A DNA stretch of 32,000 nt. Source: Cylindrospermopsis raciborskii Cr2010. GTDB lineage: Bacteria > Cyanobacteriota > Cyanobacteriia > Cyanobacteriales > Nostocaceae. The notes under the pieces are model-generated. The model did not search any database and was not told the DNA's origin. It worked only from the letters and a program-made list of their open reading frames with translations. A program made the position numbers and the translations under genes. Shown piece after piece: positions 9,621 through 32,000 of this stretch. The stretch lies in the NCBI RefSeq assembly GCF_003367075.2, contig NZ_CP065936.1, positions 1,830,001 to 1,862,000 on the forward strand, written 5' to 3'. Positions within the stretch are counted from its first letter, which is position 1. Each line of letters starts with the position of its first letter.

Positions 9621-9623
9621 CCT

Positions 9624-9823: not shown

Positions 9824-12644
<2,821 letters not shown>

Positions 12645-12838: not shown

Positions 12839-12853
12839 TTTATTATTACATAA

Positions 12854-13727: not shown

Positions 13728-13774
13728 GTTGCTGAAAAAGTTGAGAATAAACCTAATGAAAATTGGCTCAGTGG

Positions 13775-14665: not shown

Positions 14666-14700
14666 AAATACTTATTTTCGCCATGGTAAGGTAGAGGTAG

Positions 14701-14985: not shown

Positions 14986-15883
14986 ATTGTAATTGGGCTA
15001 TTGATTGATTCAAAATACCAATTTCATTACGCAGGTGATTAACTTCCTGCTCAAATTGACTTCTTTGACTATCTATTTGTGCTTGTTGTAATTCACGACC
15101 CTTAATTTTTTCCGCCAGGTCTATTTGTAGCCTCCTATTATTTTCTTGTAATTGTTGTTCTCTTTCTCGGGCTAAGGTATGTTCTAAAGTGATCAAAATA
15201 ATCGTTACCACAATGGCAATTATAGTTACAGTATAAGACTCAATCCAACCACTAGTGGAAAAAGGATTATTAATCCATTTAATAATATCATCCTTAAATG
15301 TTCGTTTAGGTATTCTAATATAGTAAACTCTGCCGATTATGCGACCTTTATTAATAAATTTTGTAGCAGTTCGTTCAGTTGCACGAGGATTAGCATATAC
15401 CCCTTGAGGAAAAATAGGAGGAGGATCAAGCAGCACGTCATAAGGATGATTTTTTAGTTCTTCAGGGTTAAGAGCTGCTTTCCAGGATATGGGTCTTGAA
15501 GAATTTTTACCAGAATAGGAGATAATATTTTTTCCGGTTGCATCTGTAACTATTAAACCAAATAAACTATAGTTACTGTCTAAAGTACGTTGAATTTCTT
15601 CCTGGTTTTGTTTTATTATCACATAAGAAAGTTTAGTTGGTAATGTGTGAGATAACATATTAAAATCAACGGTTTGAACCCGAAATATAGTTTTATTCCA
15701 GTAGTCTTCATGAATATTAGATGCAATTATACTGCCTATACCTGTAAATACAGATGTTATTATACTTAGTCTAACTAATGCTTCTTTTCTCCTAGTTATG
15801 CTCATCATCCTTCTTATTAATGTAATAATCATTTTATACTCCTTAACTTGGTAAACAAACGAAGGTATAAATACTGTAATCAT
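14933..15883 (-). CDS. Hypothetical membrane protein: TM, ~170-aa extracytoplasmic domain, TM, then C-terminal coiled coil
   Basis: TM1 is LVRLSIITSVFTGIGSIIASNI and TM2 is YTVTIIAIVVTIILITL. The tail is Q/E/R-rich with heptad character (REREQQLQENNRRLQIDLAEKIKGRELQQAQIDSQRSQFEQEVNHLRNEIGILNQSIAQLQSQ). I recognise no family. The start may be the internal MIITLIRR (15832). Confidence 0.55.
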   Translation of the reverse strand: MITVFIPSFVYQVKEYKMIITLIRRMMSITRRKEALVRLSIITSVFTGIGSIIASNIHEDYWNKTIFRVQTVDFNMLSHTLPTKLSYVIIKQNQEEIQRTLDSNYSLFGLIVTDATGKNIISYSGKNSSRPISWKAALNPEELKNHPYDVLLDPPPIFPQGVYANPRATERTATKFINKGRIIGRVYYIRIPKRTFKDDIIKWINNPFSTSGWIESYTVTIIAIVVTIILITLEHTLAREREQQLQENNRRLQIDLAEKIKGRELQQAQIDSQRSQFEQEVNHLRNEIGILNQSIAQLQSQSQNKRKRSRNSVIVG

Positions 15884-15956
15884 AATATTATAGTATTAAT
15901 GAACATGGACTCTAGTTTAGTCCTTATGATTTTTTCTCATAGGTAGCACTTACAAA

Positions 15957-16103
15957 ACAGGAACAATAAGCGATCGCATTTATTACTGGAGTTTAGATTA
16001 AAATGGGGAGCGATCGCTGCCCATAATAGAAGTTTATCTGCGTGCGATCGCCTGTGATTTCTATATACTCCTAAATAAGACCACAGATATTTTTAAAAAC
16101 CAA
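15957..16103 (+). repeat. HIP1-containing dispersed repeat, copy 1 (modules X then Y)
   Basis: X is ACAGGAACAATAAGCGATCGCATTTATT (15957-15984). Y is ACTGGAGTTTAGATT...GCGATCGCCTGTG(A/G)TTT(C/T)TATATACTCCTAAATAAGACCA(C/T)AGATATTTTTAAAAACCAA (15985-16103). Both recur at 19396-19552. Confidence 0.85.
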
Positions 16104-16150
16104 AACCAAAGTGCTAAAACTGAGTCGATGATTTTAATTTGTAACTGTTA

Positions 16151-16729
16151 TCAAGCTAATTCCTCAAAAACAATATCCTCATAAACCGACTGAATGGGAA
16201 AACTTAAATCAATACTTTGTAGCTCGATATTATCCCCCGACTGATAATTAAAAATCTCCCAATTACCCCGATCATTTTTGCGGTATAAATCAATCGCTAT
16301 TTTCTCAGCATCAACTAAAAGATAATCTTGCAAACTAGGATTGCGACGATACAATCTAAATTTATCCCCTCGGTCATAACTGGCCGTACTGGGAGATAAA
16401 ACCTCAACAATTAGACAGGGATATTGAATTGCTTGGATTGCAGTGCGATCGCCCTCGTCACAAGTAACGCTCACATCAGGATAAACATAATCTTTTGTTT
16501 CCAAAATATTTACACGACAATCGGAATTACCAACCTGACAACCACTACCCCGTAAATGACCTTTAACAATGAAAATAATATTACTAGCAATTCGTCCATG
16601 ATTTTGAGTTCCCCCAGTCATAGCGTAAACTTCACCATTAATATACTCATGGCGAAGCAGTTGTTTTTCTTCCCAGACAAAATATTCTTCGGGTGTTAAC
16701 TTAGGAAACTTGTCTTTTACAGCAATCAT
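16151..16729 (-). CDS. Uma2 (DUF820) family endonuclease
   Basis: 192 aa with EYINGEVYAMTGGTQNHGRIASNI, PDVSVTC, PCLIVEVLSPSTASYDRGDKFRLYR and DYLLVD. This is the canonical Uma2 PD-(D/E)xK pattern. Confidence 0.9.
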   Translation of the reverse strand: MIAVKDKFPKLTPEEYFVWEEKQLLRHEYINGEVYAMTGGTQNHGRIASNIIFIVKGHLRGSGCQVGNSDCRVNILETKDYVYPDVSVTCDEGDRTAIQAIQYPCLIVEVLSPSTASYDRGDKFRLYRRNPSLQDYLLVDAEKIAIDLYRKNDRGNWEIFNYQSGDNIELQSIDLSFPIQSVYEDIVFEELA

Positions 16730-16746
16730 TTTTTGTTACCTCATCT

Positions 16747-17088
16747 ATGGTTGACCAAATTAAAATCGCTTTTATCAACAATACCTTGCCTATTTTTTGT
16801 AGCGACAGGGGAACCCAACCCATTTGTTCGGTTTGTAGGAGTATGTCACCTAACTGTATTTTAGTTAACTCCTTGCCAATAATGCAAATTTATCGCGAGA
16901 TCGCCACGAAATTAACCATTAAATTAATCCACGCCTGGAGATTGTCTGTGGGGATACCCTTAACCTGGGAACCAGTAAGAGAGAAATTTGGCTCACCCAT
17001 TAGAATCACATCCGGGTATCGTCCACCCGCAGTCAATAGTTCCCTAGGTGGTGCGCGTAACAGTCAGCATCTTTACTTTCGCGCCTAA
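16747..17088 (+). pseudogene. Peptidase M15A-like (D-Ala-D-Ala carboxypeptidase family) fragment, truncated after the first zinc ligand
   Basis: ...VREKFGSPIRITSGYRPPAVNSSLGGARNSQH then LYFRA*. The SGYR-x4-N-x3-GG-x3-S-x-H motif is present. The following G-x-A-x-D and distal His are absent because the ORF stops 19 nt before the convergent WD40 gene. The N-terminal ~60 aa of the track ORF are probably not genuine. Confidence 0.5.
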
Positions 17089-17106
17089 GTTTGGCTAAGT
17101 TTAATG

Positions 17107-18870
17107 TTATGTTTCGGGGTAATTATAGGGAAAGACTGTAATAGTTTTATCTCCACTCCCAGTGGCTAGAAGTTTGCCATTAGGACTAAAAGTAATTGTA
17201 TAAATGGCATCTTCGGCACATTTGACTGTGGAGATTTCTTCACCGCTCTCTAGGTTCCACAACTTTGCAGTTTTATCTTTACTCCCACTAGCTACTATGT
17301 TCCCATCGGGACTAATGGCAATGGTATAAACAGCTTGAGAGTGTCCATTTAAAGTTCTAATTTCTTCCCCAGTTTCCACATTCCATAATTTAATGATTGT
17401 ATCATTACCACCACTCACCAATATTTGATTATTAGGGGTAAAGGCTAAAGCATTTATTCCCCCATTAAACCAGTTGGAATTCACTACTATGGTTCTGACT
17501 TGTTTCTCAGCTAGTTTTAAAATCATAATGGTTCCATCACGACTACCACTAGCTAATAGCTGACCATCAGGACTAAAAGCTACACATAAAACACCATCTG
17601 AATGACCCTGGAAAGAATAAATTTCTTCACCACTTTCTAAATTCCACAACTTAATAGTTTTGTCATTGCTTCCACTAGCTAGGATTTTACCTAAAGGACT
17701 GAAAACTAAAGAGTTTACCTGTTCTTGGTGTCCTGTTAACGTGATGATTTTTTCACCGCTAGTGAAGTTCCATAATCTAATGGTTTTATCTTTACTTGCA
17801 CTAGCTACTATGTTCCCATCGGGACTAACTGCTACTGAGTTAATACCTCCATTCCAGGGAGAATCTTGATGTGCTGGTAGGGTGCGATGAGTCTGAGTTA
17901 TTAAATCCCAAATTTTGATTGTTTTATCATCACTACCACTAACTAAATTTCTACCATCAGGACTAAAAGCTACTGCGGAAACTTTAGACTCATGACCTTT
18001 TAAATTTTGTACAAATAATAATTGGTTGAGATTTTCATCTACACTTGCTTCCGATTTAGATGTGGCAAGAATTACCTGATTAAATTTTCCTGTGATTGGT
18101 GAAGTTTCTATATTTTCAATACATGATGTTTTGGGAGTATTGAAATTAGGTTCTTCGGTTTCTTCTAAATTGCTTACTGTGATTAAATCATCAAAGCACC
18201 TATCTAATTCTGTCAAAGAGTTATTCACGGATTCAAAAAGTTCATTGAATCTAGAATTTTCATGATTTTGATTCTGTTTGAGTTGATTAAATTCACCAAT
18301 TGTGACGAAGTTTTGATGACAAGCTTCATGTAGTTTCTGGATTGAATCATCCAGATTTTCACAGCGAGACTCAATCTGGTCAATTTGTTGACTAATTTCG
18401 GTTAATTCTAATTTATTTTCTGTTTGCTCTAGTAAGTTTTTAATTTCACTGTCTATTGTATTTAGGCGATTATATATATCACTAATTTGTTGAGGAATTT
18501 CTTCGGTTGATACTAGCAATTTTTGTATAGAAATTTGAATTTTCTGATCAATTATTTCGTTTAGTTGTTGTTTCCAAATTTCAATTTTTTTGATTCTTTC
18601 ATTAGATTGGTTCATTGTTTGTTTAATTTCATCAACTTGATTTGTCAGATTTGTCATATTTATTTGTAGTGTTGTAATTTGTGGAATTTGTGATGATGAC
18701 CAAGCATGATTATACCTAACATAATTTCCTAAGTGCAATAGCAATATATCTAATAGGATAGGTATAACCATATATAGTATGTCTTTGGTAGCCAAGAATG
18801 CGATCACACCCAAAGACAGAAGGCTTAAACCAATATATTCCCTAGCTTGGATTTCTGGAATTTTACTCAT
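17107..18870 (-). CDS. Membrane-anchored coiled-coil / WD40-repeat protein (7 WD40 blades)
   Basis: The N-terminus has hydrophobic segments (IGLSLLSLGVIAFLA, MVIPILLDILLL). A ~200-aa coiled-coil-like Q/E/N-rich region follows. Seven WD repeats complete the protein (GH...SPDG..LASGS.DKTIKLWN). Confidence 0.9.
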   Translation of the reverse strand: MSKIPEIQAREYIGLSLLSLGVIAFLATKDILYMVIPILLDILLLHLGNYVRYNHAWSSSQIPQITTLQINMTNLTNQVDEIKQTMNQSNERIKKIEIWKQQLNEIIDQKIQISIQKLLVSTEEIPQQISDIYNRLNTIDSEIKNLLEQTENKLELTEISQQIDQIESRCENLDDSIQKLHEACHQNFVTIGEFNQLKQNQNHENSRFNELFESVNNSLTELDRCFDDLITVSNLEETEEPNFNTPKTSCIENIETSPITGKFNQVILATSKSEASVDENLNQLLFVQNLKGHESKVSAVAFSPDGRNLVSGSDDKTIKIWDLITQTHRTLPAHQDSPWNGGINSVAVSPDGNIVASASKDKTIRLWNFTSGEKIITLTGHQEQVNSLVFSPLGKILASGSNDKTIKLWNLESGEEIYSFQGHSDGVLCVAFSPDGQLLASGSRDGTIMILKLAEKQVRTIVVNSNWFNGGINALAFTPNNQILVSGGNDTIIKLWNVETGEEIRTLNGHSQAVYTIAISPDGNIVASGSKDKTAKLWNLESGEEISTVKCAEDAIYTITFSPNGKLLATGSGDKTITVFPYNYPET

Positions 18871-18889
18871 ATTTATCTACTGATTTATT

Positions 18890-19135
18890 TTATTTTTTTA
18901 GGATCTCATTTACAGTTAACTTCACCTCAGAAAATAAAGGGGAACAAATCACCTCATCACCCGTAAAAACCTGCTCCTCATATAAACCTTCCACCCACTC
19001 CAAAACAGTCACCTTTTGCGCCATCGGAAGGTTGGTTTGAGCATCACTTTCTGGGTAGACAATTTCAGGCGCGATTGTCTCCCCAAGCTGATTTTTATTG
19101 GAATTTGCCTCATCATATCTATACCTCCCATTCAC
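18890..19135 (-). pseudogene. Uma2-family endonuclease C-terminal fragment
   Basis: The 81-aa ORF ends in VTVLEWVEGLYEEQVFTGDEVICSPLFSEVKLTVNEILKK. This fits the Uma2 C-terminal pattern (strand, Y, G-D-x-h-x-S-P-h-F-x-h-x-L-x-V). The catalytic N-terminal part is missing. Confidence 0.45.
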
Positions 19136-20043: not shown

Positions 20044-20171
20044 TTCTGTGTGATGCGGGAGTTTTGCTTTGTTTAGTAGATTACACACAACCTCAACATC
20101 AAATTTATAAAAATCTGGTGATGCGTGTCAGTAAACCTATGGTTACAACTCACCTACTTACATCAGATTAA
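20040..20171 (+). pseudogene. PIN-domain (VapC-like) toxin, truncated to 43 aa at the defence-island boundary
   Basis: Translation is MILCDAGVLLCLVDYTQPQHQIYKNLVMRVSKPMVTT then HLLTSD*. The MILCD-G-L--L-D first acidic PIN motif is present and the rest of the domain is missing. The last codons overlap the brxL stop on the other strand. Confidence 0.55.
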
Positions 20172-22204
20172 TCGACAGGGTCACAACGGAGAAATGTGAC
20201 CTCAAAAGCTTTACACCCCCGGAACTCCTGCAATCGGTTTGGAATCGAGAACACATCTTTTAGGTCGTAGTGCTGAAATATGTCTAATCCCCTGTCTAAT
20301 AATATCTTCCAGCCTGTATCTGTCACTATGTGTCGAGCGTGAATGGTAGAAGTACCATCAAATTCCCACTTGAAATCAATCCCAGCAATACTACAGGAAT
20401 CTTGTATCTTCACTAAATACTCAACCTGTTGCTCCCCTTTTAATTCATCTAGGGTTGTAATTAAATTAATCTTTACTTCGTCTCTGTTGGGCTTTAACTT
20501 GATTACGGTTTCTATCAAGTCCATTAAGTTGCAGGCCTGGTGAAAAACTCGGATGTAGGGATCGGTAATGGTAATCTCCTTTGCACCCTCTAAATAGGGA
20601 CCTAACAGGGTGTCAAATGAAACCCCTCGCTGATTCTCTTTAAAGGTCAGGTGCGCTTCCTGTGGAAAAACTTCTCCATCCTCTTCCCATAATGATGGTC
20701 TCTCTTTCTCTTCGGTCAGGATCTGGTGGTAGAAGCTGGCATACTCTTCTTCTTCCAGGGTGGTGACAGTTTTACAGGTGCCCTTTCTATTTTCGTAGGC
20801 AAAGTTAACTTTCCTATAGGTAGAATCTATGCGCAATAGCTGATCTTTAACCCGCTTGCGCCCCTCTATGGCAATTTGTAACATTTCCTCTACCTCGGAC
20901 TCTGTCCCACTACCCTGGGGAAAAAGGAGTTTCATTAAACCGGAAAAGGTCTTTTGAATACCATCGCGATCGCGGGTGGAAATATCAGGAGAAAGGGAAA
21001 AGTAAGTATGATAGTAATCTGAGTAATCAAGGTTACGCATGGCTCGGAGAATTTCCGCTAGGTAGTCTACGACAAAACCATAGCCATTGCAGAACATTTC
21101 CCCCCGGATGATGTCCACTTCCCATCCGGGAATGTAAAAATGAATGCGATCCAGGAAGGCGGAATCGTGGAATTTGTCGGGAAGTTCTTCAAAAAGATCG
21201 GAGTGCTTGAGCATATAGGGGACTGTATGCTTGGTGTTACCTACAAATACCATGGAGGCTTCGGCTCCAAGGGTTTCTATACCTCGTGAAAAGGATTTGT
21301 TGGCCATGTAGTTCTTCATGATGTCTACAAGAGATTTATTCACACTCTTTTGCTTACCAGCAAACTCATCAAAGGCCACCACATCCCAATAACCAACTAA
21401 ACCAATCCTACCAGTGGAATTATTGACAAACAATTTGGCTACGGTTACTTCGCCACCGGAGATGAGGATGCCATGGGGGGAGAATTCGGAAAAAATGTGG
21501 GATTTGCCAGTCCCCTTGGGTCCAAGCTCAATTAGGTTATAGTTGCGCTCACAAAATGGAATCAGACGGATGAGCTGAAGTAGCTTGCTTCGCCTACCAA
21601 ACATCTCGGGGTTAAAACCAATACTCTGGACTAGTAAGTCAATCCATTCTTCCGTGGTGAATGCTTGGCGGGCCTGCACGTAAGTATCAAAATCAAAGTA
21701 AGATAGTTGAATGGGTTTTAGGGAGGCCAGAATCCAGGGACTAGAATTCTTATCTTCGCTAAATTCGTATTCCAGGTCTGCAATGCACCACACTCCACTC
21801 ACTAGGAGTTTGGGGTGGCTCTTGACTGTGCTAGAATCAACTAACACCTTCTTAATGCCCAGATTGCCAAACTCGGCTTCATACACATCCGCCTTTTCGT
21901 TCAACTCAACGCTGATCTTATCTATGACCTTATAACGTCCCTTTTCCCTAATATTAGAGCGAATCAGCCCTGCTTCGTTGCGATGGACATAATGTTTCCG
22001 CAATATTTCCTTAACTGTTTCAATCCCTGTGTTAATAGTGGCTTCGTCATTGGTGGCACAATACTGACCGAGAAGGTATTCGAGTACATAGGAAGGAACG
22101 ATGGCGTTACCTTTGACCGTCTTAACCAGGTCTTTTCGCACCACAAGTCCAGGAAAATGGGCATTTATCTTTTGATCCAGGTTGTTCAAAGCAGTTCCTC
22201 CCAC
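20168..22204 (-). CDS. brxL: BREX system Lon-protease-like protein BrxL
   Basis: 678 aa with N-terminal LDQKINAHFPGLVVRKDL, the P-loop ELGPKGTGKSH, and Walker B VVAFDEF. It is the last gene after pglZ. The track start is GTG at 22204. A TTG at 22189 preceded by GGGAGG is an alternative start. Confidence 0.9.
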   Translation of the reverse strand: MGGTALNNLDQKINAHFPGLVVRKDLVKTVKGNAIVPSYVLEYLLGQYCATNDEATINTGIETVKEILRKHYVHRNEAGLIRSNIREKGRYKVIDKISVELNEKADVYEAEFGNLGIKKVLVDSSTVKSHPKLLVSGVWCIADLEYEFSEDKNSSPWILASLKPIQLSYFDFDTYVQARQAFTTEEWIDLLVQSIGFNPEMFGRRSKLLQLIRLIPFCERNYNLIELGPKGTGKSHIFSEFSPHGILISGGEVTVAKLFVNNSTGRIGLVGYWDVVAFDEFAGKQKSVNKSLVDIMKNYMANKSFSRGIETLGAEASMVFVGNTKHTVPYMLKHSDLFEELPDKFHDSAFLDRIHFYIPGWEVDIIRGEMFCNGYGFVVDYLAEILRAMRNLDYSDYYHTYFSLSPDISTRDRDGIQKTFSGLMKLLFPQGSGTESEVEEMLQIAIEGRKRVKDQLLRIDSTYRKVNFAYENRKGTCKTVTTLEEEEYASFYHQILTEEKERPSLWEEDGEVFPQEAHLTFKENQRGVSFDTLLGPYLEGAKEITITDPYIRVFHQACNLMDLIETVIKLKPNRDEVKINLITTLDELKGEQQVEYLVKIQDSCSIAGIDFKWEFDGTSTIHARHIVTDTGWKILLDRGLDIFQHYDLKDVFSIPNRLQEFRGCKAFEVTFLRCDPVD

Positions 22205-24727
22205 TTAAAAATCAAAGTCACTGGTGAACGAGCGGCGCATGGTATAAGAAAGGTGTTTATACTTCTTATGTTGAGATGTGCCGGGTAGTTTTTCGTTAAG
22301 GCGCAAGTAGACCTCTTGTCCATTGGCTTCATCCGCTTTGCGTGTTAGGGTGAAGGTGACGGAAATTTCCCTATCTCTGGGATTTTCTGATTCTAGGTCA
22401 AAGGTGAGGTCATGGGAGTCGGAGATCAGTTCCTCTGTCTGAGTATAGATTCCAGCTTGCAGAAACCGGGGGTGTACTTTTTCTGTAACTGCTTGTGTCT
22501 GGTATATAACTACAGTCAGTTGGGTGGCTGTGATAATAGAACTAGCTCCCCGGAGAATTTCCACTTCCACCATAGTGATATCACTGGTTCGCTTCTTGTG
22601 GATCTTCACAATAGGAATCACCACTTCTTGCAGGGAGGCGCCACCATGGACGTAACGACTTCCCGAACCTTTAAGACGGAGACGGTTGATTGATTTGGGG
22701 ATCTGCACTTCTAGTTCCCCTTGTAGACCAAGCTGATTGGAAGTAAATTTACGTAGGCTGGGGGTCTTTTTTAGTCCCTTACCCAGGACGAAGCGGCGGT
22801 TTTTAAACAGGATCTGTTCCCCCTGGGGTTCATCACTGGCAAAATCACTATCTTCGATCGCCCGTTTCTGGTAGATAAATCCGTGGTCTGCTGTTACCAA
22901 TATATTACTAGCATTTGCACTGGTTAGTTTCTTAATCAGCTTGATGAGTTGATCTAGGGTTTCTTCAACCGCATCAAAAACTCGGGACTCTGATTCTCGT
23001 TTATCACCTATGGCATCAATGTGGTTATGATACACATAGACCAAATCATGGTCACGGAAGAGTGTGCGACGATCGTCTGAGCTTAGTTCTCTTAGATCTT
23101 CTGCGGTTATGGCAGTGGCACGTTTGGAATGTCCGCGTTTGATTTGTTTTTTACGATTTTCGGTTCCCATGGAACTTTGAGAATCTACTAAAACCGAACC
23201 ATCATTAGCTAGGGCGAGAGTGCTATGGGGGAGTAAGGCAGCCATACCAAGCTGAGTATAGCTGGGGAGCATGGCCATGGCTGATTCTAGGGTGGCTTCG
23301 TAACGATCTTCTTGGCGGATTAAGCTGATCAGTTCATCACCAATTTCAAAGCGCAAAGCATCGGAGATAATTACAAATATTTTCTTATCTGTGTTGAGAA
23401 AGGGCAGTACCCAGTGGTGAAAAAATTTATTTTGGAGATAGATATATGGTGCAGACCAACTCGTAGTCTGATCAACCCATGATTGCCAGTGATCATTCAG
23501 CTTTAAGAGGTAATTGTTAGCGTAAAGGTTTTCTATCAAATCAACTAATCCTCCCATAAATGAACAGTCTGGGACTCGGCCTAGATGGTAGATAGTTTTG
23601 CGGTAAAGCTGGTCGATGCGAAACCATGATTTAGCGTATTTTTCCACCCCTTCAGCTAGGGATTCTATGGTAAAGCATGCCCTATCTAACTCCTGTATAA
23701 ACTTAGCTGCGGCCCCAACACATTCGTAGTAGTGTTGAAACTCTTCATACCAATGGCTTTGCTTGCGCCGCCATATCCACTGAGCAACATCACTACCAAG
23801 TAAAGTTCTCTGCTCCACACCGCGCACCAGTTCGCTCAATATTCTTTGGTCAATTAGGCGGAAGTAGTCCACATCGAGCAGTTCCCCAATCTCTCTTTCT
23901 CCTAGGTCATGTTCAATGCCAAGGTCTTTAGCACACCAGCTGGATAAAGTCTCGAAGGAATGTTGACATTTAATGCTATCCTTCCATCGTTTGAGAAATA
24001 CCACAGCGTCGGAGGAGAGGTTTTGAGTTCCTTTGGGGGTGGAGGCAAAGTTTTCAAAATAGCAGTAGCTGAAGAGTTGGAGAGCAAAATCCTTCATACT
24101 TGGTTTGGCACAGCTGTAACCATAGCAGTTCTTCATCTGCTCCCAAAAATACTGCTCTAGCTCGCACCGTACCATCAGGCGATATTTATCCCCAATTTGA
24201 CCTTTCTCATACTGGGCACAGTCACTAGAAAGCTCCCCTAAAAGTTGTTCCAGAATCGCTTCCAATCGTGAGTCCGACCCACAGCCGGTGCAGACAGCTA
24301 ACATCTTTAATTGGATTTGAGTGATAGTATCGTGGGATGTAATCAATCGTTTAAGCAACTCCCTCCGCTCAGAGGATTGGAAAAAGGCAATGTGACCTTG
24401 CACCAAATGGGTAAACTCCCTACTTAGTTCCAGTTCGGCGAGCCATAGAGAAGTCTGGTCAGCACGAAACTCTGTGTGGGCCAGTTGAACATCCAGCAAC
24501 CAGTTTTCTAGGTCAGGGGGTTGAGGTCCTTCTTGATAGAGTAGGAACTTACTTTTCGGTTCCTGGTGCAGGATACGGTACTTAACGGCGAACTGGTTGT
24601 TGGTAAGTTCTATTTTCTCTACACCACCCAAAAATTCCCGGACAAGTTCCGGTTTGGCATCATACCAGAACACAATGCGGTGTTTTTCAAAGAGTTTGGT
24701 GAGGGACTGGTTAATTCGGTTAATCAT
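22205..24727 (-). CDS. pglZ: BREX alkaline-phosphatase-superfamily protein PglZ
   Basis: 840 aa. The N-terminus (RIVFWYDAKPE...NNQFAVKYRILHQEPKSKFLLYQEGPQPPDLENWLLDVQLA) is typical of type-1 BREX PglZ. The PglZ domain carries VIISDALRFEIGDEL and VTADHGF. Confidence 0.93.
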   Translation of the reverse strand: MINRINQSLTKLFEKHRIVFWYDAKPELVREFLGGVEKIELTNNQFAVKYRILHQEPKSKFLLYQEGPQPPDLENWLLDVQLAHTEFRADQTSLWLAELELSREFTHLVQGHIAFFQSSERRELLKRLITSHDTITQIQLKMLAVCTGCGSDSRLEAILEQLLGELSSDCAQYEKGQIGDKYRLMVRCELEQYFWEQMKNCYGYSCAKPSMKDFALQLFSYCYFENFASTPKGTQNLSSDAVVFLKRWKDSIKCQHSFETLSSWCAKDLGIEHDLGEREIGELLDVDYFRLIDQRILSELVRGVEQRTLLGSDVAQWIWRRKQSHWYEEFQHYYECVGAAAKFIQELDRACFTIESLAEGVEKYAKSWFRIDQLYRKTIYHLGRVPDCSFMGGLVDLIENLYANNYLLKLNDHWQSWVDQTTSWSAPYIYLQNKFFHHWVLPFLNTDKKIFVIISDALRFEIGDELISLIRQEDRYEATLESAMAMLPSYTQLGMAALLPHSTLALANDGSVLVDSQSSMGTENRKKQIKRGHSKRATAITAEDLRELSSDDRRTLFRDHDLVYVYHNHIDAIGDKRESESRVFDAVEETLDQLIKLIKKLTSANASNILVTADHGFIYQKRAIEDSDFASDEPQGEQILFKNRRFVLGKGLKKTPSLRKFTSNQLGLQGELEVQIPKSINRLRLKGSGSRYVHGGASLQEVVIPIVKIHKKRTSDITMVEVEILRGASSIITATQLTVVIYQTQAVTEKVHPRFLQAGIYTQTEELISDSHDLTFDLESENPRDREISVTFTLTRKADEANGQEVYLRLNEKLPGTSQHKKYKHLSYTMRRSFTSDFDF

Positions 24728-25166
24728 AAATGCCCTCCAGCAGGTTAGAAATCGCTTCTGAGGAAGGTAATTGACCTTTTAGTTCCTTTATTCGGGGGAT
24801 AATGGCTTTTTCTAGTTCCCATGCAATTTCTCCAACCAGTGGTTGGAGTTTTTCATCCCCACTAAACTCCAGGTAATATTGGCGCATATACCAGAGATTT
24901 TGTACGGAAAACCCTCTGATACCGGGGAATTTTTCCTGGAGATCAGCAGATAGCCTTTCTACCACGGATTTCCCCCATCCACTATCTTTTTGTCGCTCCA
25001 CGATCATTTTGCCCATGTCCCAATATAATCCTACCAGCTGGGTATTTACGGCTTTGAGAGCTGCATACTGGGCTGTGCGAACTCGTTCTTTGACCTCTAG
25101 TAGGAGTTGGGAATACTCGACTGGAGATAGAGTTGATTGGATATCTTTCTTAGATTTCTCAGCCAT
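24720..25166 (-). CDS. DUF1016 (YhcG-like) N-terminal-domain protein lacking the PD-(D/E)xK nuclease domain
   Basis: 148 aa. VKERVRTAQYAALKAVNTQLVGLYWDMGKMIVERQ...WGKSVVERLSADLQEKFPGIRGFSVQNLWYMRQYY matches the DUF1016 N-terminal helical region. Homology ends at GEIAW and no nuclease core follows. It overlaps the pglX stop by 1 nt and the pglZ start by 8 nt. Confidence 0.65.
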   Translation of the reverse strand: MAEKSKKDIQSTLSPVEYSQLLLEVKERVRTAQYAALKAVNTQLVGLYWDMGKMIVERQKDSGWGKSVVERLSADLQEKFPGIRGFSVQNLWYMRQYYLEFSGDEKLQPLVGEIAWELEKAIIPRIKELKGQLPSSEAISNLLEGIYD

Positions 25167-26802
25167 TAGTCCTCCTCTTTTGTCTCCAATCCCGGGATTT
25201 TCTTTAAAGCTAACCCAAATTTTGGGTAATTTGCCTTGACACCGTCATCCAGGTCAATGTGGATTTGCTCTATGGCCAGGGGATAGAGGATCTCTCGTTC
25301 GTAGTCATCGAGCTCTTCGATTATGGTAGCAAGTTTGTTGATTTCTTTGACTGCTTTGGTTTTCTCTGACTGGGAGGCATCAGCACTTACTTCAACTCGT
25401 TTGAGGTGATTTTGACGGGCTTCTAGTTTGGCTCGGAATTCCCGCAGGTAATCGTTTAGCACTATACTGACTGTATCTGGGCGATAGCGGTGTAGGTAGA
25501 TGAGGGCGTTGAAGTTGCTTTTGGGGGAGGAGAAAAGCCAGTAGATGGGGCGTTTTTTGTAGCGTTTGACGTGGTCGTTGTAGAAGTCTTTGAGGAAGTA
25601 TTTGCGGATATCTTTGCCTAGGGCTTTTTCGATGAATTTTAGGTTTTCTTCGTAGTGTTGTTCACCAAAGGTAAGGCGCAGGAATTGGCGGAAGCGATCG
25701 CTCATATCGTCGGTGAACCATTGGCCATCGAGAATGGGGATAACGTTGGTTTTTGTGGGGGTAAAGGTGGGATTGGGGATTTGTTGGAGGTAGTCTGGGA
25801 GGGTTTCTCCTTGGTTGGCGAGGATGAGTCCTGGTTGGTCGAGGGAGTAGCGTCCAAACATGCACCCTACTGCGTAGGAGATGTATTCTTTAATGGTGTC
25901 GGCGAGGAGAAGGGTTTCTAGTTCTGTTTGGGGTTTGGTGTGGTCGTAGCGGTAGTGGGGGTTACAGGTGAGGGTGATTTCGTTCAGGGGAACTTCGGGG
26001 GTGAGTTCGTCTTGGAGTCCGTACGCCAAGATAAATATGCGGTTATTTTCTTCTTCTAGGCGTTGCATTTCTAGGGTTGTTTGCTGCCATTGATGGCGGA
26101 GTTTTTGGTAGGTGGTTTGGAGGGTGGGTTGGCGGTAGCTGGGGTCGAGGAGGGGGAGTTTGGTGAAGTCCCAGGAGGTTTCATAGGAGTCCCAGTCGCG
26201 CATCTCTACCAAAATTAAACTTAATGTTGTATTAATAACAGTATGCACTTGACTCACTATTATTGGCAGATCCCTCACATTTTTTATTTGCAGGTTCAAT
26301 GTAGGATTAAGTGTTTTATTCAAAACTCGTGCCACTTTGCTGTTCAAGAATGCTATTAAATACTCTAAAGGATGTTCATCCTTAATAAAAACAGTTGAAC
26401 CACCTTTATCAAAGGTCTCATCTTCTACAAGCAGACGGAAACTTTGTTTTGCTGATGTTATTAACGTCCAAGTAATACCTTTTCTGTACCAAAGATACTC
26501 TGCAATAATTCGGCAGCTTGGGTCTTGTCGATAATGTGTCCTTGCAGATTCAGACCAGTTGACTATATGCTCCCTATTCCCATACCATTTTCTGTAATCA
26601 CCACCTTTTGCATATGAAAGCCACTTTTTGTTTCTACCTATTAATGAAGCAGAAACCTCCCATGTATTTCTAACAAACTTGTCATTGTTAGCTGTTATGT
26701 TTTGCCCTTCAGAAATCGTCCATTCTTCCACCCGCTCTGAACTAAACGCATTTATGATATTTTCACTCACCCAATAGGCGATCGGACTCCCCGGAATCTT
26801 CT
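25166..26802 (-). pseudogene. pglX: pglX (BREX N6-adenine methyltransferase), C-terminal part downstream of the IS insertion
   Basis: KKIPGSPIAYWVS..., ...HVKRYKKRPIYWLFSSPKSNFNALIYLHRYRPDT...IDLDDGVKANYPKFG is the conserved PglX C-terminal region. The first 17 residues of the track ORF (MRLIGSIIVVYLHENCC) are read from the IS inverted repeat and are not genuine. Confidence 0.9.
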
Positions 26803-26813
26803 TACAGCAGTTT

Positions 26814-27317
26814 TCATGTAAATAAACCACAATGATTGAACCAATTAAGCGCATCCTCTGCTGTAATATAATTTACTGCACTTGTCATGGCCTCATTTAG
26901 GGCTTCTAATGTTCGTGCCTCCCGACTACGGAGAAATTGCTTTAATTTTGACCAACACAATTCTATCGGAGATAAGTCTGGAGAATAGGGGGGTAAAAAC
27001 TTAACTTTTGCACCGACTGATTCAATTGACAATCTCACGCGCTCGGCATAATGAACCTTTAAATTATCCATAACAACAATAGCCCCTTTCCATAATTGAG
27101 GTACTAAAACCTGATTTACATAAGTGAGAAATACTTCTGTATTTGTGCTTCCCTCTACAGTCATTGCTGCCAGAATTCCATCCATATTTAAAGCCCCAAT
27201 CAGAGAAATATTTTTGCCCTTGTTTCCTGGTACGCTACCAATTGCTCTTTGTCCATCTTGGCTTCTGGCAAACAACCTTGACATCCCTAAATTTATCCCC
27301 GATTCATCTAAAAACAC
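26814..27317 (-). CDS. IS630-family transposase, DDE catalytic part (orfB)
   Basis: LDESG, VMDNLKVH and SPDLSPIELCWSKLK make up the DDE triad. The frame stays open upstream through the A8 run (...KKSLNASEQETPRVQELRHDYRRWVDTVDIRNLVFLDES) and is +1 relative to orfA. Confidence 0.85.
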   Translation of the reverse strand: MFLDESGINLGMSRLFARSQDGQRAIGSVPGNKGKNISLIGALNMDGILAAMTVEGSTNTEVFLTYVNQVLVPQLWKGAIVVMDNLKVHYAERVRLSIESVGAKVKFLPPYSPDLSPIELCWSKLKQFLRSREARTLEALNEAMTSAVNYITAEDALNWFNHCGLFT

Positions 27318-27393
27318 TAAATTTCTAATATCAACTGTATCTACCCAACGACGATAATCATGCCTTAATTCTTGAACACGTGGAGTCTCCTGT

Positions 27394-27762
27394 TCACTGG
27401 CATTTAGACTTTTTTTTATGACGTAGACCCAACTTTTCTAAGGCTCGATGCATGGTTGTGATACTAACACTAGTGCCCGTCGTTTCTCTCAGGCGATCGC
27501 ACAATTCTGAAAGTAGTAAATCATTTTTCTCATCCAGCCAAGACTTGATCATGTTTAAATATTGGCCTGCAATTACAGGCTTTTCATATCCTCCACATTG
27601 CTTTGGCTCAACTTGCCCAGTTTCACGATAACGACGTACTAAATTTCTCACAAATGATAAGCTGACCTTGAATCTTTCTGCCAACTGGCGTTGAGATCCC
27701 TCTTGAGCAACCCATGCTACAATCACGCGATTACGCAAATCTATTGAATAAGGTTTTGGCAT
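27394..27762 (-). CDS. IS630-family transposase, N-terminal HTH part (orfA)
   Basis: 122 aa. MPKPYSIDLRNRVI...GSQRQLAERFKVSLSFVRNLVRRYRETG is the typical IS630 helix-turn-helix region. It ends just after an A8 run (27410-27417). Confidence 0.85.
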   Translation of the reverse strand: MPKPYSIDLRNRVIVAWVAQEGSQRQLAERFKVSLSFVRNLVRRYRETGQVEPKQCGGYEKPVIAGQYLNMIKSWLDEKNDLLLSELCDRLRETTGTSVSITTMHRALEKLGLRHKKKSKCQ

Positions 27763-27853
27763 ATAATTTGACAGTACTTCTACTCTATTTTAGTTTATTA
27801 CCCTTATTATAGCTTATCTTATTTTGTAGTTTAACTACATGAAAATTGCTGTA

Positions 27854-29691
27854 AAATCAGCAGCAGAAGCACGGAAAAACCAACCGCAATTGGGATTTTT
27901 AATGGCTTCACGAAGCGCAGACTCCTTCTCTCCTTCGGAGTTGCCATCAACTAAACGTACATAACTTCCTTTATATTCAGAATCATTGCTATTCGCTAAA
28001 ACAAAGGCAGTTGTGGATACAACCTCACCCCCAATACTGTCAAACCCTCTTGCGCCAAGATGGGCCATGGAAAGGAGAGTATCTTGACCCAAAATACCCG
28101 CTCGAAGTTTTTCAAATGAGGAGAGAAACATCCAACTCTGCATGGTTATCATCGCAACCAAACCGTGCTTTCTCGCAAGTTGCAGATTGCGCTCAATAAA
28201 CACAGCAAATAAATCCCCCTTGCTGTCAGGATAATTATCTTTAACCCACGCCCCCAACCTGCTATTCATCCCCTTCCCACCCATATAGGGGGGATTAGCC
28301 ACCACTACATGATACTTAGAACTCAAATAATCTGCCTGCTTTAACACTTGCAAAACCTTCTGATGGGTCTGGTAAAAAAGCAGTTGCCCAGAAACATTCT
28401 TCCCTTTCAACATGGCCACTATCCCTCCCACATCTGTCGCTGTGGGACGAATGAGAGAGCCAAAATTATCAGCCTCTTCAAACTCATGTAGGGTGCTTTG
28501 CACCTTATATGTAAACAGATCCCGCCCTATAAAATCCATGTACCTCTTTAGCTCATCCTTCTCAAATATCACCTTTTGTAATACGCAAATATTCGGTTGG
28601 AAAGGCTTACGCAAGAACCGCCGATATTTCTCCCGGGCCTTCATCACCAATGCAAACGCTGCCAACTCCCCTGCTCGTTCATCAATTTCCACACCATAAA
28701 GGTTATGGGTGAGAATCTTACCAGGAATCTCAGATGGTTCATAACCTTCCTCTTCATAAATGGCATACAGCAGCTCAAAGGCATATACCAATATATGTCC
28801 GCTACCGCAGGCCGGATCACATATCTTAATCTCCTCCGGATTTTCAATGGGGAGAAAATCAGATTCAGGTACTTCTGGTTTGATATAATATTCCATGCGC
28901 TCCACCAATGGAGAATGGGGACGATTCAGCATCCACAACCGACCCAAGGAATTTTCCACCAAATATCTAACAATCCAGTGGGGGGTAAAAAGCTGGGTCG
29001 CTGCGGGAATATTCTCTGGCGTAATCTTCTTATTCTTTTTTAATCCCTCAAATACCTCATCCTTCTTCTCCGAGATATAATACTGATACAACCATCCAAT
29101 CACCTCCACATCCTGACCAACATCAGGAGTCATAGCCTCACGGGTATAGGCGAGAATAGATTTCCCTGATAGCAAATCATCGGGTAACAACAGCTCAGTG
29201 TAATCTTGAATGCGCTGAAAAAGAAAAGGCATAGCTCCATGCCAGTAGTTACAAGCAGCTACCAGTAGGAGGCGATAGGCTTCCGTTTGTGGGTCTCGGC
29301 TGGTAGAAGTTCCGTTTAGTAAGGTCAAGACATGATTTCTAGTTTTAGCTATGGGCATCATATCCTCATCAATATGTCCCATCTTAGCTTCAGCCAAAAC
29401 CTCTGGTTGGAACTGTCCTTCCAAAGGGGATATAATGGCGGTGGTGGTGTAGCCATTTAAATCCATAAACCGCAGGGCACAGAATCGGTTAAACCAGATA
29501 TAAGCCACCTGCTCAATGACCTGTTGTTTTCCCTGTTCTTTAATTTGCTGTTCTAGCTTATCTACTGCTTCTGCGCTTTCGCGACGAGCTACACTGTCTT
29601 CAGCTATTATATGATTTAATTTACTAGAAACCTGTTCAATTAGGCTGCGACGGGCAAATTGGGCAAATCTTTTGAGTCTAGTTGTATCCAT
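27854..29691 (-). pseudogene. pglX: pglX (BREX N6-adenine methyltransferase), N-terminal part upstream of the IS insertion
   Basis: MDTTRLKRFAQFARRSLIEQV...AYIWFNRFCALRFMD, DPACGSGHIL (SAM motif I) and VVANPPYMG (NPPY motif IV). The last 6 residues of the track ORF (TAIFM*) are read from the IS end. Confidence 0.92.
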
Positions 29692-29696
29692 ATATG

Positions 29697-30233
29697 TTAA
29701 TTTTCTCTCCTTTCAGTGCTTTGATTTAGGCGTGTGACGGGCCACCCGGGGAAAGTTTCGTTCCATGTCTCCAAATTGAACACTTGACAATTTTCTACTA
29801 ATTGTCGTCTCCATCGCGGCACAGTCTTACCCATAGGAGGGATCACCTTTCTTATTTCATCTGAAAAATTATCCAGTAATACTGCATCATCCAATGTTAT
29901 AATATTGAGGTAGTCCACTGGTTTGTGAATCTTTTCTTCCGCCCAGCGATACAAGAATGAATCAACAAATTTGTTTGCAAAAGTCCTGCTGAGACTCCCA
30001 TTTTTCAATTCTTCCCAAAACTTTTCCAACCCCTTTACCTGTGCTTTTGGGTTGCCAGGATCTTTAATCTCGACAAACACGATGCGCGTTTCAAACTCAA
30101 CCACGAAATCAACACGGTACATTTCGGCTACACCATGATAGTCTGGGAGTGTTTTATCCTTCATTTGATCAAAAATTAGTGCCTCTATTGCATCAGTAAA
30201 GTCAATTTCCAAATCTCCCTCTCTCACTTTCAT
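29697..30233 (-). CDS. Small PD-(D/E)xK-like (restriction-endonuclease-fold) protein, family not recognised
   Basis: 178 aa. YRVDFVVEFETRIVFVEIKD gives D-x12-E-x-K on two predicted adjacent beta strands, preceded by an acidic helix (DAIEALIFD). Its start overlaps the ATPase stop (ATGA at 30230-30233). Its stop is 5 nt from the pglX ATG. Confidence 0.5.
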   Translation of the reverse strand: MKVREGDLEIDFTDAIEALIFDQMKDKTLPDYHGVAEMYRVDFVVEFETRIVFVEIKDPGNPKAQVKGLEKFWEELKNGSLSRTFANKFVDSFLYRWAEEKIHKPVDYLNIITLDDAVLLDNFSDEIRKVIPPMGKTVPRWRRQLVENCQVFNLETWNETFPGWPVTRLNQSTERREN

Positions 30234-31312
30234 TTGCCTAAATCCCCCATTTTTAGGTTTGCCTGTTGTTTGATAAGGTCGCTAAAGGTGTCGGCAATGG
30301 CATTTGGTGACATGCCTATGTAGTTATCTACACTATCTAGTTTGATGGTTCCAGATTCATCGTCACGGTAAAGAGTATGAAACAGAATATGATCCCCTTT
30401 ACTCTTGTCCATAAGTAAGTCAAACCACTTAAGTAGGACGTAATCATGGGTTGCCAGAATAATTTGCTGTCCATTGCGTGATAGCTCTAGCAAAATGGTA
30501 ACGAGACTTTTCATTAGTTTAGGATTCATGTTTGATTCGGGCTCATCCCACAACAGCAAACCACTAACACCGGGTTGAAGCGCTCCCGTTTCTAACAGAC
30601 GGTAAAGCATTCCAACTTTGCAAATACCCTCAGCTATAGAGTTAGCGGAGTATTCAGAATCCTCGGTTCTGAAGGTGACTTTGCCTCCTCCATAAAAAAT
30701 GAATCGACCACCGCAGATGGCTTTCAGCTCTTCCATGGCCCATTTGGATTTTTCGTGCAGGTTTTCTGGACGAATTTGGGGAAGGTCTAACAACAGGCAA
30801 ATATCTTGATAGGTCTGGTCAAAGGAGACTTGGTACATCTGGTACAAACTGTTAAATCCTTCCATAAAGGAGAGGACTTCTTTGGTGGGAAAGAAAACTG
30901 GTTTGGATTGGTATTGTTCCCAGCTATTTCTATCCTTGATCTTGATTTCCAAGGATTTAGATCTGGTGCTAAAGCTAACAGCTATCTGTTGATCATGGGC
31001 AAAGTGGGCTTCTAATGTGGCTTTTGCACCTCCACCGTGGTGACGCATTTTGTTTAACTTAGCATCTAAAGGCAAAAATAGGCGTAAAAGCTCAGGGGTA
31101 AGGGCGGAAGCAAGTTCCTTAACAAGTTCTTTGTCACTAATATGGGAATTGTTTTTGAATAGGGGAGCCACACCACTGAGGAAATAAGCAGCTTTGAGCA
31201 GATGGGTTTTTCCTGTGCCATTTTTCCCGATGATCACGTTGATCTTAGGAGAAAAATCAATTTTCACTTCGGTGAAGGCCATGAAGTTTTTCAGTTCTAA
31301 ATGTGTTATCAT
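30230..31312 (-). CDS. ABC/SMC-type (AAA_15/AAA_21-like) ATPase, 360 aa
   Basis: MITHLELKNFMAFTEVKIDF...IIGKNGTGKTHLLKA is the N-terminal strand plus Walker A. SIAEG is signature-like, LLLWDEPESNMNP is Walker B plus D-loop, and ILATHD is the H-loop. It is the first gene of the operon. Confidence 0.85.
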   Translation of the reverse strand: MITHLELKNFMAFTEVKIDFSPKINVIIGKNGTGKTHLLKAAYFLSGVAPLFKNNSHISDKELVKELASALTPELLRLFLPLDAKLNKMRHHGGGAKATLEAHFAHDQQIAVSFSTRSKSLEIKIKDRNSWEQYQSKPVFFPTKEVLSFMEGFNSLYQMYQVSFDQTYQDICLLLDLPQIRPENLHEKSKWAMEELKAICGGRFIFYGGGKVTFRTEDSEYSANSIAEGICKVGMLYRLLETGALQPGVSGLLLWDEPESNMNPKLMKSLVTILLELSRNGQQIILATHDYVLLKWFDLLMDKSKGDHILFHTLYRDDESGTIKLDSVDNYIGMSPNAIADTFSDLIKQQANLKMGDLGK

Positions 31313-31324
31313 ATTTATGTTATT

Positions 31325-31505
31325 TTGTACCCATATCTCTTAGTTTTTTCTCGACTCAGTGCTTTGATTTAGGCATGTGATGTACCACTTGGAATACACT
31401 TATGTATTTGTCTACACTATCTAGTTCGATGGTTCCAGATTCAGCCTTATTGTGTAGGCTATGAAACTGTGTATAGTCCCTTTTACTGTTGTCTATAAGT
31501 AATTA
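31325..31505 (-). pseudogene. Decayed paralogous copy of the ATPase 3' end, nuclease 3' end and pglX-start junction
   Basis: 31399-31503 aligns to 30316-30420 (ATPase codons for ...ESGTI(E/K)LDSVD(K/N)YI...). 31340-31393 aligns to 29697-29750 (nuclease C-terminus: KWYITCLNQSTESRKN* vs GWPVTRLNQSTERREN*). 31325-31336 TTGTACCCATAT matches 29682-29693 TTGTATCCATAT (pglX ATG). About 0.56 kb is deleted between the two pieces. Confidence 0.7.
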
Positions 31506-31577
31506 AATGGAGAATTGGTACTTCTTGTCAATACCTCAGCCCAAAAAAGATTATGAAATGCTAGGACTGACCATTTA

Positions 31578-31697
31578 AAAAAAAAGATTTATTGGAAAGA
31601 CTAGTATTATGGACCGGGGCTTATTTTGTAGCTAGTTGTGGAGGTGTCAGACCAACTTAAAAAATATGTAGAGAATCAAGATTCCCTTGAACATTAG
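31578..31697 (+). pseudogene. IS200/IS605-family TnpA (Y1 transposase) C-terminal remnant, frameshifted
   Basis: Pieces in two frames: KKRFIGKTS / LWTGAYFVASCGGV / DQLKKYVENQDSLEH*. This resembles the conserved TnpA C-terminus (LW-x-x-YF-x-S-x-GG...YI-x-x-Q). No intact ORF remains. Confidence 0.45.
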
Positions 31698-31746
31698 TTG
31701 TGCTTGTCTTATAGCGTTATAATGGATCGCTCTAGCATTCGGCGCA

Positions 31747-32000
31747 TTACGGGATGAAAATGCGTCTTGCGCCTTGATACTCTTCAATATCAACTACAAT
31801 ATCAACCAAACGATTAACGCAGCGATTGCGATAATCTGGCTCGGAAAGTAGTCGATCAATATTACCGATTGTAACGACGGGTAATGATGTGGGGGTATTT
31901 TCCTCCCGCATCACTTGCTCCAGGGAATCTTTGCCTTTCATGCTTCGGTTACCGGTGATCAGGATCATCTGATTGGCTTGAGCATACCGCCAAACAACGC
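31747..32000 (-). CDS. Conserved hypothetical protein, partial (N-terminus beyond window end); possibly PIN-like
   Basis: The frame is open to the window edge (...VVWRYAQANQMILITGNRSMKGKDSLEQVMREENTPTSLPVVTIGNIDRLL...GARRIFIP*). LITxNR and the C-terminal pattern recall small nuclease-like proteins, but I cannot name the family. Confidence 0.4.
   Translation of the reverse strand, partial: VVWRYAQANQMILITGNRSMKGKDSLEQVMREENTPTSLPVVTIGNIDRLLSEPDYRNRCVNRLVDIVVDIEEYQGARRIFIP

Follow-up and report, generated by a model that had tools for sequence, protein, structure and literature searches.

Type 1 BREX systems have been studied in E. coli HS, Acinetobacter NEB394 and Salmonella D23580, and the nesting of known autonomous systems in BREX is already described in general terms. 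In Salmonella D23580 (PARIS, ariA/ariB) and in pEFER (BrxU), a second defence system lies among the type 1 BREX genes. A further module of this kind is HEC-02 (Hma-embedded candidate 02), an ABC ATPase with a NERD-like PD-(D/E)xK protein carrying a (D/E/Q)xK motif (bioRxiv 10.1101/2024.01.29.577857). A HEC-02 homologue placed in E. coli, away from its native surroundings, cut plaquing, and neither gene could be spared (Payne et al. 2024, bioRxiv 10.1101/2024.01.29.577857). Here we describe a BREX locus in 32,000 nt of Cylindrospermopsis raciborskii Cr2010 (contig NZ_CP065936.1, positions 1,830,001 to 1,862,000; hereafter the window). An earlier note on this DNA had read it as a BREX-like operon in which a small ATPase/nuclease pair, placed 5' of pglX, might replace BrxA, BrxB and BrxC. 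The ATPase/nuclease pair is HEC-02, a catalogued autonomous two-gene defence module nested in BREX, and the region is very probably the distal two-thirds of a Raphidiopsis/Cylindrospermopsis type 1 BREX locus whose brxB and brxC lie just outside the window.

With the studied type 1 systems the locus shares BREX-1 PglX, PglZ type A and BrxL in the canonical order, and its relatives also share BrxB and BrxC. It differs from them in that the Raphidiopsis clade is without brxA, that the C-terminus of BrxL is MIT_C/PLD-like and not Lon-like, that pglX is broken by an insertion sequence (IS) in the source strain, and that DUF433/DUF5615, HEC-02 and a yhcG remnant are nested among the BREX genes.

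The HEC-02 pair and the genes past the window edge

The 360-aa product matches the PADLOC profile HEC-02A (PDLC04213, 8.2e-115; residues 1-356 on profile positions 1-335 of 337), and the 178-aa product matches HEC-02B (PDLC04229, 1.5e-69; residues 1-170 on positions 1-169 of 171). From the sequence the two had been described as an ABC-type ATPase and a PD-(D/E)xK-like protein. Pfam places the former with ABC/SMC-type ATPases (AAA_21, AAA_15, AAA_23, SMC_N), and its translation contains a Walker A motif (G29-KNGTG-K35-T36) and a Walker B motif (LLLWDEPE). In the latter, D42, E55 and K57 are invariant in 16 homologues from cyanobacteria and proteobacteria and fit a PD-(D/E)xK site, and the strand order around these residues is compatible with a PD-(D/E)xK/NERD fold. 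No Pfam or NCBIfam family matched HEC-02B, and an AlphaFold2 model built from the 16-sequence alignment was too uncertain to use (mean pLDDT 52.8).

PARIS, Gabija, Septu and AbiL were considered as identities for the pair and rejected. Their ATPase profiles (AriA, GajA, PtuA and AbiL) matched the 360-aa protein at 1e-10 to 1e-23, with 6.5e-23 for AriA, against 8e-115 for HEC-02A, a difference of at least 90 orders of magnitude.

As in other members of the HEC-02 family, the ATPase gene is followed on the same strand by the NERD-like PD-(D/E)xK gene, the two reading frames overlap, the profile matches run end to end, and the pair is nested within a methylation-based defence system, as it was at the discovery of the family. 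The setting differs, since the family was defined from Hma and a non-cyanobacterial homologue was tested, whereas the member described here belongs to a type 1 BREX of a cyanobacterium, where its activity is predicted. PARIS in Salmonella D23580 likewise combines an ABC ATPase with a nuclease, although its nuclease AriB is a TOPRIM protein and BrxU is a GmrSD enzyme, while the partner in HEC-02 is a NERD-like PD-(D/E)xK protein.

Neither brxB (DUF1788) nor brxC is encoded in the 32-kb window. A search for exact copies of the 360-aa protein gave ten Raphidiopsis/Cylindrospermopsis contigs that encode it (L001-L010). Seven of these are NCBI assemblies, with accessions including CP060822, VHLJ01 (L003 = VHLJ01000001) and CP091284 (L005). 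In every relative contig reaching far enough, the order upstream is brxB, brxC, DUF433, DUF5615, a spacer of ~430 nt and the HEC-02 pair, so that brxB and brxC are found directly upstream of the part seen in the window. The products are BrxB of 203 aa, BrxC of 1166-1168 aa, a DUF433 protein of 124 aa and a DUF5615 protein of 131 aa. In L006 both BREX proteins match their families end to end (BrxB: PADLOC 5.9e-70, Pfam 6e-41; BrxC: PADLOC 1717 bits, NCBIfam BREX_BrxC 1207 bits).

In L006 the counterpart of position 32000 is position 9313, which falls within the DUF5615 gene (9171-9566), and brxC ends at 8756. Translated into window-equivalent coordinates, the brxC stop would lie at 32557 (557 nt past 32000), the brxC start at 36057 and brxB at 36067-36678. 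The window from 32000 to 27852 (4149 nt) is 100% identical to L006 and L007, and the remaining relatives are 98.5-99.98% identical to the window end across the aligned 3.6-4.1 kb. The 73-aa open reading frame (ORF) at 31747-31968 is not a gene remnant but the end of an intact DUF5615 gene that the window edge truncates. DUF433 and DUF5615, both matched by Pfam in the relatives, lie between brxC and HEC-02. We take them to be probably a toxin-antitoxin-like pair, on the pairing of COG2442 with COG4634.

The statement that brxA, brxB and brxC are all missing is thus true of the 32 kb, and for brxA of the relatives' locus as well, but for brxB and brxC it is an effect of the window edge. Because both genes sit just past that edge in the relatives, the reading as a BrxC-less class does not survive.

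It could still be that a rearrangement peculiar to this strain, such as another IS, has removed or displaced brxB and brxC and left a BREX stump beside a live HEC-02. The strain already has one IS in pglX, BREX decays elsewhere in the clade (L003 has an IS1-family transposase and frameshifts in pglX and pglZ), and the sequence of the source strain past 32000 is inferred from relatives. Nevertheless, the last 4149 nt are 100% identical to two relatives in which brxC follows 557 nt further on, all ten related contigs agree, and the last kilobase of the window carries no sign of a breakpoint, which makes such a loss very improbable.

HEC-02 in other genomes

More than 200 HEC-02B homologues were found, many of the proteobacterial ones at 62-72% identity. 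Thirty-three HEC-02B loci from species-representative genomes and two annotated plasmids were surveyed and scored against the L006 BREX proteins. Twenty-four of these 35 loci are nested in type 1 BREX, and brxC is present in all 22 with readable upstream sequence, the other two being cut by the contig end. The arrangement that the earlier note had proposed to look for, with the pair immediately 5' of pglX (with pglZ) and brxC missing, was found in none of the 35 where the upstream sequence could be read. The remaining 11 loci lie outside BREX. Among them, HEC-02 is nested in a type I restriction-modification (RM) operon of the order HsdS, HsdM, HEC-02, HsdR in L026, which has no BREX, and adjoins a MAD3-like ATPase in L029.

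These results bear directly on the proposal that the small ABC ATPase and the PD-(D/E)xK protein replace BrxA/BrxB/BrxC, which, if true, would have meant a new class of BREX that lacks the universal BrxC ATPase. It drew on the lack of all three genes within 32 kb, on the translational coupling of the pair to pglX (4-nt overlap, 5-nt gap) and on a junction between pair and pglX that is old and recurrent. Against these stand brxB (203 aa) and brxC (1166 aa) at 0.5-4.7 kb past the edge in all ten closest relatives, the retention of brxC in every readable BREX-nested HEC-02 locus, and the independence of HEC-02, of which one homologue works alone in E. coli and another is nested in type I RM without BREX. 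We accordingly leave the replacement next to no probability. The two observations that the earlier note itself had named as speaking against it were, in substance, both made, since brxB and brxC lie beyond 32000 in relatives and the pair was already catalogued. Its second suggestion fared unevenly: a separate two-gene defence module is what HEC-02 is, while a BREX remnant without brxB and brxC is inaccurate, the decay seen consisting of the insertion in pglX, the deletion within yhcG and the lack of brxA.

On plasmid pLM6 of Methylomonas koyamae, the RefSeq order is DUF1819, DUF1788, brxC, an ATP-binding protein, a hypothetical protein, pglX, a PDDEXK nuclease, pglZ and brxL. This is the layout of the window family. 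BrxC is 62% identical but HEC-02B only 37%. In other phyla, too, the order brxC, pair, pglX recurs at HEC-02B identities of only 35-40%. BrxC and PglZ identities co-vary across loci (Spearman 0.85), whereas those of HEC-02A and HEC-02B, tested as a sign of functional integration, tracked neither the BREX core (Spearman 0.1-0.44, not significant) nor each other. Since the layout recurs while HEC-02 identities do not follow the BREX core, the sequences suggest that the brxC-pglX slot is old and that its HEC-02 occupant has been swapped within it.

BREX loci commonly hold nested systems in the brxC-pglX slot. Other cargo is nested in the BREX slots of further loci. L028 has a HEC-01A-like ATPase with a 179-aa partner (6530-8189), and in L020 an unannotated 395-aa protein stands between brxC and HEC-02 (7225-8409). 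Between pglX and pglZ, L017 carries a HEC-05/BrxU-type GmrSD gene (12402-14273).

A decayed second copy of the junction between pair and pglX had been noticed upstream of the intact pair, and direct repeats against the intact copy confirm it. Repeat D1 (31401-31507 vs 30317-30423; 107 nt, 79%) falls in the 3' region of HEC-02A, and repeat D2 (31325-31388 vs 29682-29745; 81%) covers the HEC-02B stop, the 5-nt spacer and the pglX start. The fossil thus runs from a 107-nt 3' piece of an earlier HEC-02A, across an internal deletion, to the last codons of an earlier HEC-02B, the spacer and the first codons of an earlier pglX. It is common to all relatives at 98.5-100% identity. Its most plausible origin is replacement of the cassette at the start of pglX, of which it would be the scar, or else an old tandem duplication at that point. 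The view that the linkage of the pair to pglX is old is supported by this fossil together with the same layout at 35-40% HEC-02B identity in other phyla, but the fossil does not imply that HEC-02 substitutes for BrxABC.

Gene map and state of the BREX genes

An ORF map reproduced the gene list and the minus-strand order given in the earlier note, with all six ORFs at the same coordinates. The junctions are also as had been reported: the ATPase gene overlaps the 178-aa gene by 4 nt, 5 nt separate the latter from pglX, pglX overlaps the DUF1016_N gene by 1 nt, this gene overlaps pglZ by 8 nt, and pglZ and brxL abut (0 nt). The features of the locus are as follows.

20168..22204, minus strand: brxL, 678-aa ORF from GTG (Pfam BrxL_N, BrxL_ATPase and MIT_C; PADLOC; NCBIfam)
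22205..24727, minus strand: pglZ, 840 aa, BREX-1 phosphatase PglZ type A (Pfam, PADLOC, NCBIfam)
24720..25166, minus strand: internally deleted yhcG/PDC-S02, 148 aa (Pfam DUF1016_N; PADLOC; alignment to the 349-aa allele)
25166..26804, minus strand: pglX 3' part, codons 614-1158, specificity/target-recognition-domain half (BLASTP against L006, NCBIfam, PADLOC PglX models)
26805..27851, minus strand: IS630-family insertion sequence, 1047 bp (empty site in L006, DDE_3, inverted repeats)
27852..29691, minus strand: pglX 5' part, codons 1-613, helical bundle and N6-adenine methyltransferase half (BLASTP, Pfam, NCBIfam)
29697..30233, minus strand: HEC-02B, 178 aa, NERD-like PD-(D/E)xK nuclease, predicted effector (PADLOC PDLC04229)
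30230..31312, minus strand: HEC-02A, 360 aa, ABC/SMC-head-type ATPase (PADLOC PDLC04213, Pfam)
31325..31507, minus strand: fossil of an earlier, diverged HEC-02 cassette (direct repeats against the intact copy)
31747..32000, minus strand: DUF5615 gene, 3' 254 nt, cut by the window edge (L006 alignment, Pfam in relatives)

With the genes seen in the relatives, the full locus would read brxB, brxC, DUF433, DUF5615, the HEC-02 fossil, HEC-02A, HEC-02B, pglX, yhcG, pglZ and brxL. A scan of 31200-32000 gave no terminator, and 3 promoter-like sites against 2.7 expected.

Profile searches with Pfam, PADLOC and NCBIfam back the earlier assignment of PglX, PglZ and BrxL to type 1 BREX. PglZ is matched by TIGR02687, "BREX-1 system phosphatase PglZ type A" (899 bits, cut-off 270), by PADLOC end to end (1027 bits) and by Pfam PglZ (1.4e-62). 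BrxL is matched by TIGR02688 (659 bits, cut-off 329) and by PADLOC (1168 bits), and is called as 673 aa in the relatives. It consists of an N domain, an AAA+ core and, in place of a Lon-protease-like domain, a C-terminal MIT_C/PLD-like domain. Alignment to the solved Acinetobacter BrxL is limited to residues 8-472, while residues 504-645 align to human MITD1. The MIT_C/PLD-like C-terminus (window 20168-20700, residues ~504-672) occurs in every surveyed HEC-02-bearing BREX with a sufficiently complete brxL. A MIT_C-like C-terminus has already been noted for many BrxL proteins (PMC12065111).

Between pglX and pglZ lies a reduced yhcG, whose 148-aa product matches PDC-S02 (PADLOC, 2.6e-45) and, in Pfam, DUF1016_N only. 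L005 (CP091284) has a 349-aa allele with YhcG_C at the same place. Compared with the full-length protein, residues 1-128 of the window copy correspond to residues 1-128 (divergent from ~117) and residues 127-148 to residues 328-349. The PD-(D/E)xK nuclease domain YhcG_C (full-length residues 183-335) is therefore lost and the last 22 residues are kept. PDC-S02/YhcG is a candidate system of one gene that is found within BREX, DISARM or type I RM. The window copy resembles it in its N domain and its pglX-pglZ position, which is also held by the 349-aa yhcG of CP091284 and by the PDDEXK gene of Methylomonas pLM6, and differs in having no nuclease domain.

A tblastn search with three BrxA proteins gave no match (E<=10) to the window or to any of L001-L010. 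Upstream of brxB in L001-L007 (~4307-4634) come 328 non-coding nt and then a divergent pmbA/tldD gene, with no brxA. In eighteen other BREX loci that carry HEC-02, BrxA is encoded immediately 5' of brxB (PADLOC BrxA, 2.6e-87), and all comparable loci in other phyla keep it, including pLM6, where it is annotated as DUF1819. As judged from these sequences, the absence of brxA is a clade-wide feature of the Raphidiopsis/Cylindrospermopsis BREX locus. BrxA is dispensable in the BREX of E. coli HS and required for defence in those of Acinetobacter and Salmonella.

The single pglX gene of the earlier map holds as to family (BREX-1 PglX) and start (29691), but the gene is split by an IS630-family element. 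This element (26805-27851, 1047 bp) separates codons 613 and 614 (...ADF|KKIPGSP...). It is absent from the otherwise 99.9-100% identical L006, whose TA at 13460-13461 is duplicated on both IS flanks. Its terminal inverted repeats of 31 nt lie at 26802-26832 and 27824-27854, and its ORFs encode a helix-turn-helix protein (27394-27762, 122 aa) and a DDE_3 protein (26814-27317, 167 aa; Pfam 2.2e-36). A run of eight A residues just before the first stop (27394-27420) may mark a site of programmed frameshifting or a mutation that inactivates the transposase.

Both parts of pglX remain recognizable. NCBIfam BREX-1 PglX (cut-off 500) matches the 5' part at 779 bits over positions 1-666 of 1210 and the 3' part at 632 bits over positions 662-1208. 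The 5' part also matches Pfam Eco57I, N6_Mtase and MmeI_Mtase. Its residues 1-616 are 99.7% identical to L006 PglX 1-616 (BLASTP), and its ORF reads on into the IS to end at 27835. The 3' ORF (25166-26854, 562 aa) is 100% identical to L006 PglX 614-1158 over residues 18-562 (BLASTP). This reading frame opens with an IS-derived ATG (26852-26854), which is immediately preceded by GAGG and followed by 17 in-frame leader codons. The solved E. coli BrxX aligns to PglX over residues 44-1149 (E 1e-220). A type IIG RM enzyme and DISARM DrmMI were rejected as identities of pglX, given that their PADLOC scores are below that of PglX, that NCBIfam calls BREX-1 PglX and that pglZ and brxL are neighbours.

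Five related assemblies have an intact pglX (1158-1180 aa), and the IS split is confined to the source strain. GCA_045377515.1 and CP091284 represent sister strains in which the gene is whole. The insertion is recent, as the flanking halves are 99.7-100% identical to the intact allele. PglX is needed for both methylation and defence in the BREX systems studied. With pglX split by the IS and PglX essential in those systems, BREX methylation and exclusion are most likely off in this strain. HEC-02 is intact, and nothing else in the locus is likely to work.

The clade varies further in and around pglX. Residues ~500-850 of PglX are hypervariable (22-72%) in loci that are otherwise 98-100% identical (window vs L001, L002, L004-L006), with at least three PglX alleles, of 1158, 1162 and 1180 aa. 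Such a pattern fits an exchange of the target-recognition region, and hence BREX motifs that would be strain-specific. The locus has also decayed independently in other strains. In R. raciborskii GIHE 2018 (L003, 11622-17401), pglX lies in three ORFs, several frameshifts run across pglX/pglZ and an IS1-family transposase runs into pglZ. In the read-assembled contigs L009 and L010, HEC-02B is truncated to 135 aa.

On the other side of brxL, the region up to an rRNA operon (13778-19135) has a low GC content (31-39%) and a further defence-island flavour. It holds a fragment (296 aa) of an ABC/SMC-like ATPase next to an unannotated 316-aa protein, a putative endonuclease of the Uma2/PDC-S03 type (16154-16729), an 81-aa Uma2 C-terminal fragment (18893-19135) and a 587-aa WD40-repeat protein. 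The rRNA operon is complete (16S, two tRNAs, 23S, 5S; 7944-12839, plus strand) and lies ~7 kb from the BREX locus.

Split PglX and the role of HEC-02

In nine species of the survey, pglX is naturally split and HEC-02 is nested between the halves (L012-L019 and L035; ~7000-15800 in each locus). On the reference protein, the N (methyltransferase) half spans residues 1-597 or 1-578 and the C (specificity) half residues ~604-1158. Each half is a gene of roughly 600 aa, and pglX_N overlaps HEC-02A by 4 nt. Massilia pinisoli (NZ_JANUGW010000032) and Caballeronia sp. LjRoot29 are examples of naturally split loci. PADLOC has separate PglX profiles, of 607 and 593 positions, which fit the two halves. 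In six of the nine, HEC-02 is accompanied by a ~3.3-kb insert, in which SIR2 was identified in L014. In a tenth species (L011, 10462-19181), HEC-02 is upstream of pglX, and the split pglX encloses a 495-aa protein and SIR2-HerA. The ratio of nonsynonymous to synonymous substitutions (dN/dS, NG86) is 0.04-0.25 and 0.08-0.30 for the two halves, at dS 0.1-2.9, and on these sequence comparisons both natural halves are under purifying selection.

The solved Salmonella PglX consists of an N-terminal methyltransferase domain and a C-terminal specificity domain joined by a hinge at residues 654-659. Through the E. coli BrxX alignment, this hinge corresponds to ~residues 612-623 of Raphidiopsis PglX, so the natural split (~598-603) and the IS of the window both fall at or near it. 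The IS lies 10-17 residues from the natural split point and leaves two open half-genes. No description of a split PglX was found in the literature searched, a search that was not exhaustive.

One might go further and see in the PglX hinge and the brxC-pglX junction dedicated embedding slots of BREX, with PglX working as two polypeptides. We regard this as speculative and doubtful. If a split PglX is functional, the IS630 insertion may not abolish BREX in this strain, and on this view HEC-02 may be functionally coupled to PglX and not just parked beside it.

A related possibility, which overlaps with the reading of HEC-02 as a nested module, is that the pair is an accessory wired to BREX, for example as a guard on PglX or as a system triggered by Ocr-like anti-BREX DNA mimics. 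Comparable proposals exist for the PARIS nested in Salmonella BREX and for PrrC within type I RM. Payne et al. (bioRxiv 10.1101/2024.01.29.577857) discuss a guard-type logic in connection with ABC ATPase systems that are embedded. Homologues of 35-40% identity occupying the same brxC-pglX slot with overlapping or abutting frames would fit, as would the position of the pair between the pglX halves with its 4-nt overlap. HEC-02 nevertheless defends alone in E. coli, its divergence is uncoupled from the BREX core, and it is found within type I RM and in settings without BREX genes as well. In addition, the PARIS embedded in Salmonella BREX showed no BREX dependence for methylation, and no trigger has been found so far. 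A wired accessory is therefore possible but unlikely.

We favor HEC-02 as an autonomous module within a type 1 BREX. HEC-02A would sense a phage-derived cue, as other defence ABC ATPases do, and would then license or activate the NERD-like HEC-02B nuclease. Co-transcribed with pglX-pglZ-brxL, the pair could form a second layer once BREX is evaded or inhibited, a logic already put forward for nested PARIS (Salmonella BREX), BrxU (pEFER) and PrrC (EcoprrI).

Several points weigh against this interpretation. That brxB and brxC follow past 32000 in the source strain is strongly inferred from the relatives and not a direct reading. The HEC-02 homologue tested came from an Hma and not a BREX context, and activity of the cyanobacterial HEC-02 and BREX is predicted by analogy. 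Without brxA, even the relatives with an intact pglX may not have a fully working BREX. Finally, HEC-02 recurs beside pglX or within it in different phyla, and a functional link to PglX, beyond the role of an independent passenger, would fit that pattern.

The locus is a cautionary case on window-edge artefacts and, at the same time, a well-documented cyanobacterial example of defence systems nested in BREX. The survey suggests that a pglX split at the hinge can persist as two half-genes under selection. Around the same HEC-02, strains of the clade differ in an intact or IS-split pglX, in three pglX specificity alleles and in a full or deleted yhcG, which offers material for comparing methylomes and phage susceptibility in a bloom-forming cyanobacterium.

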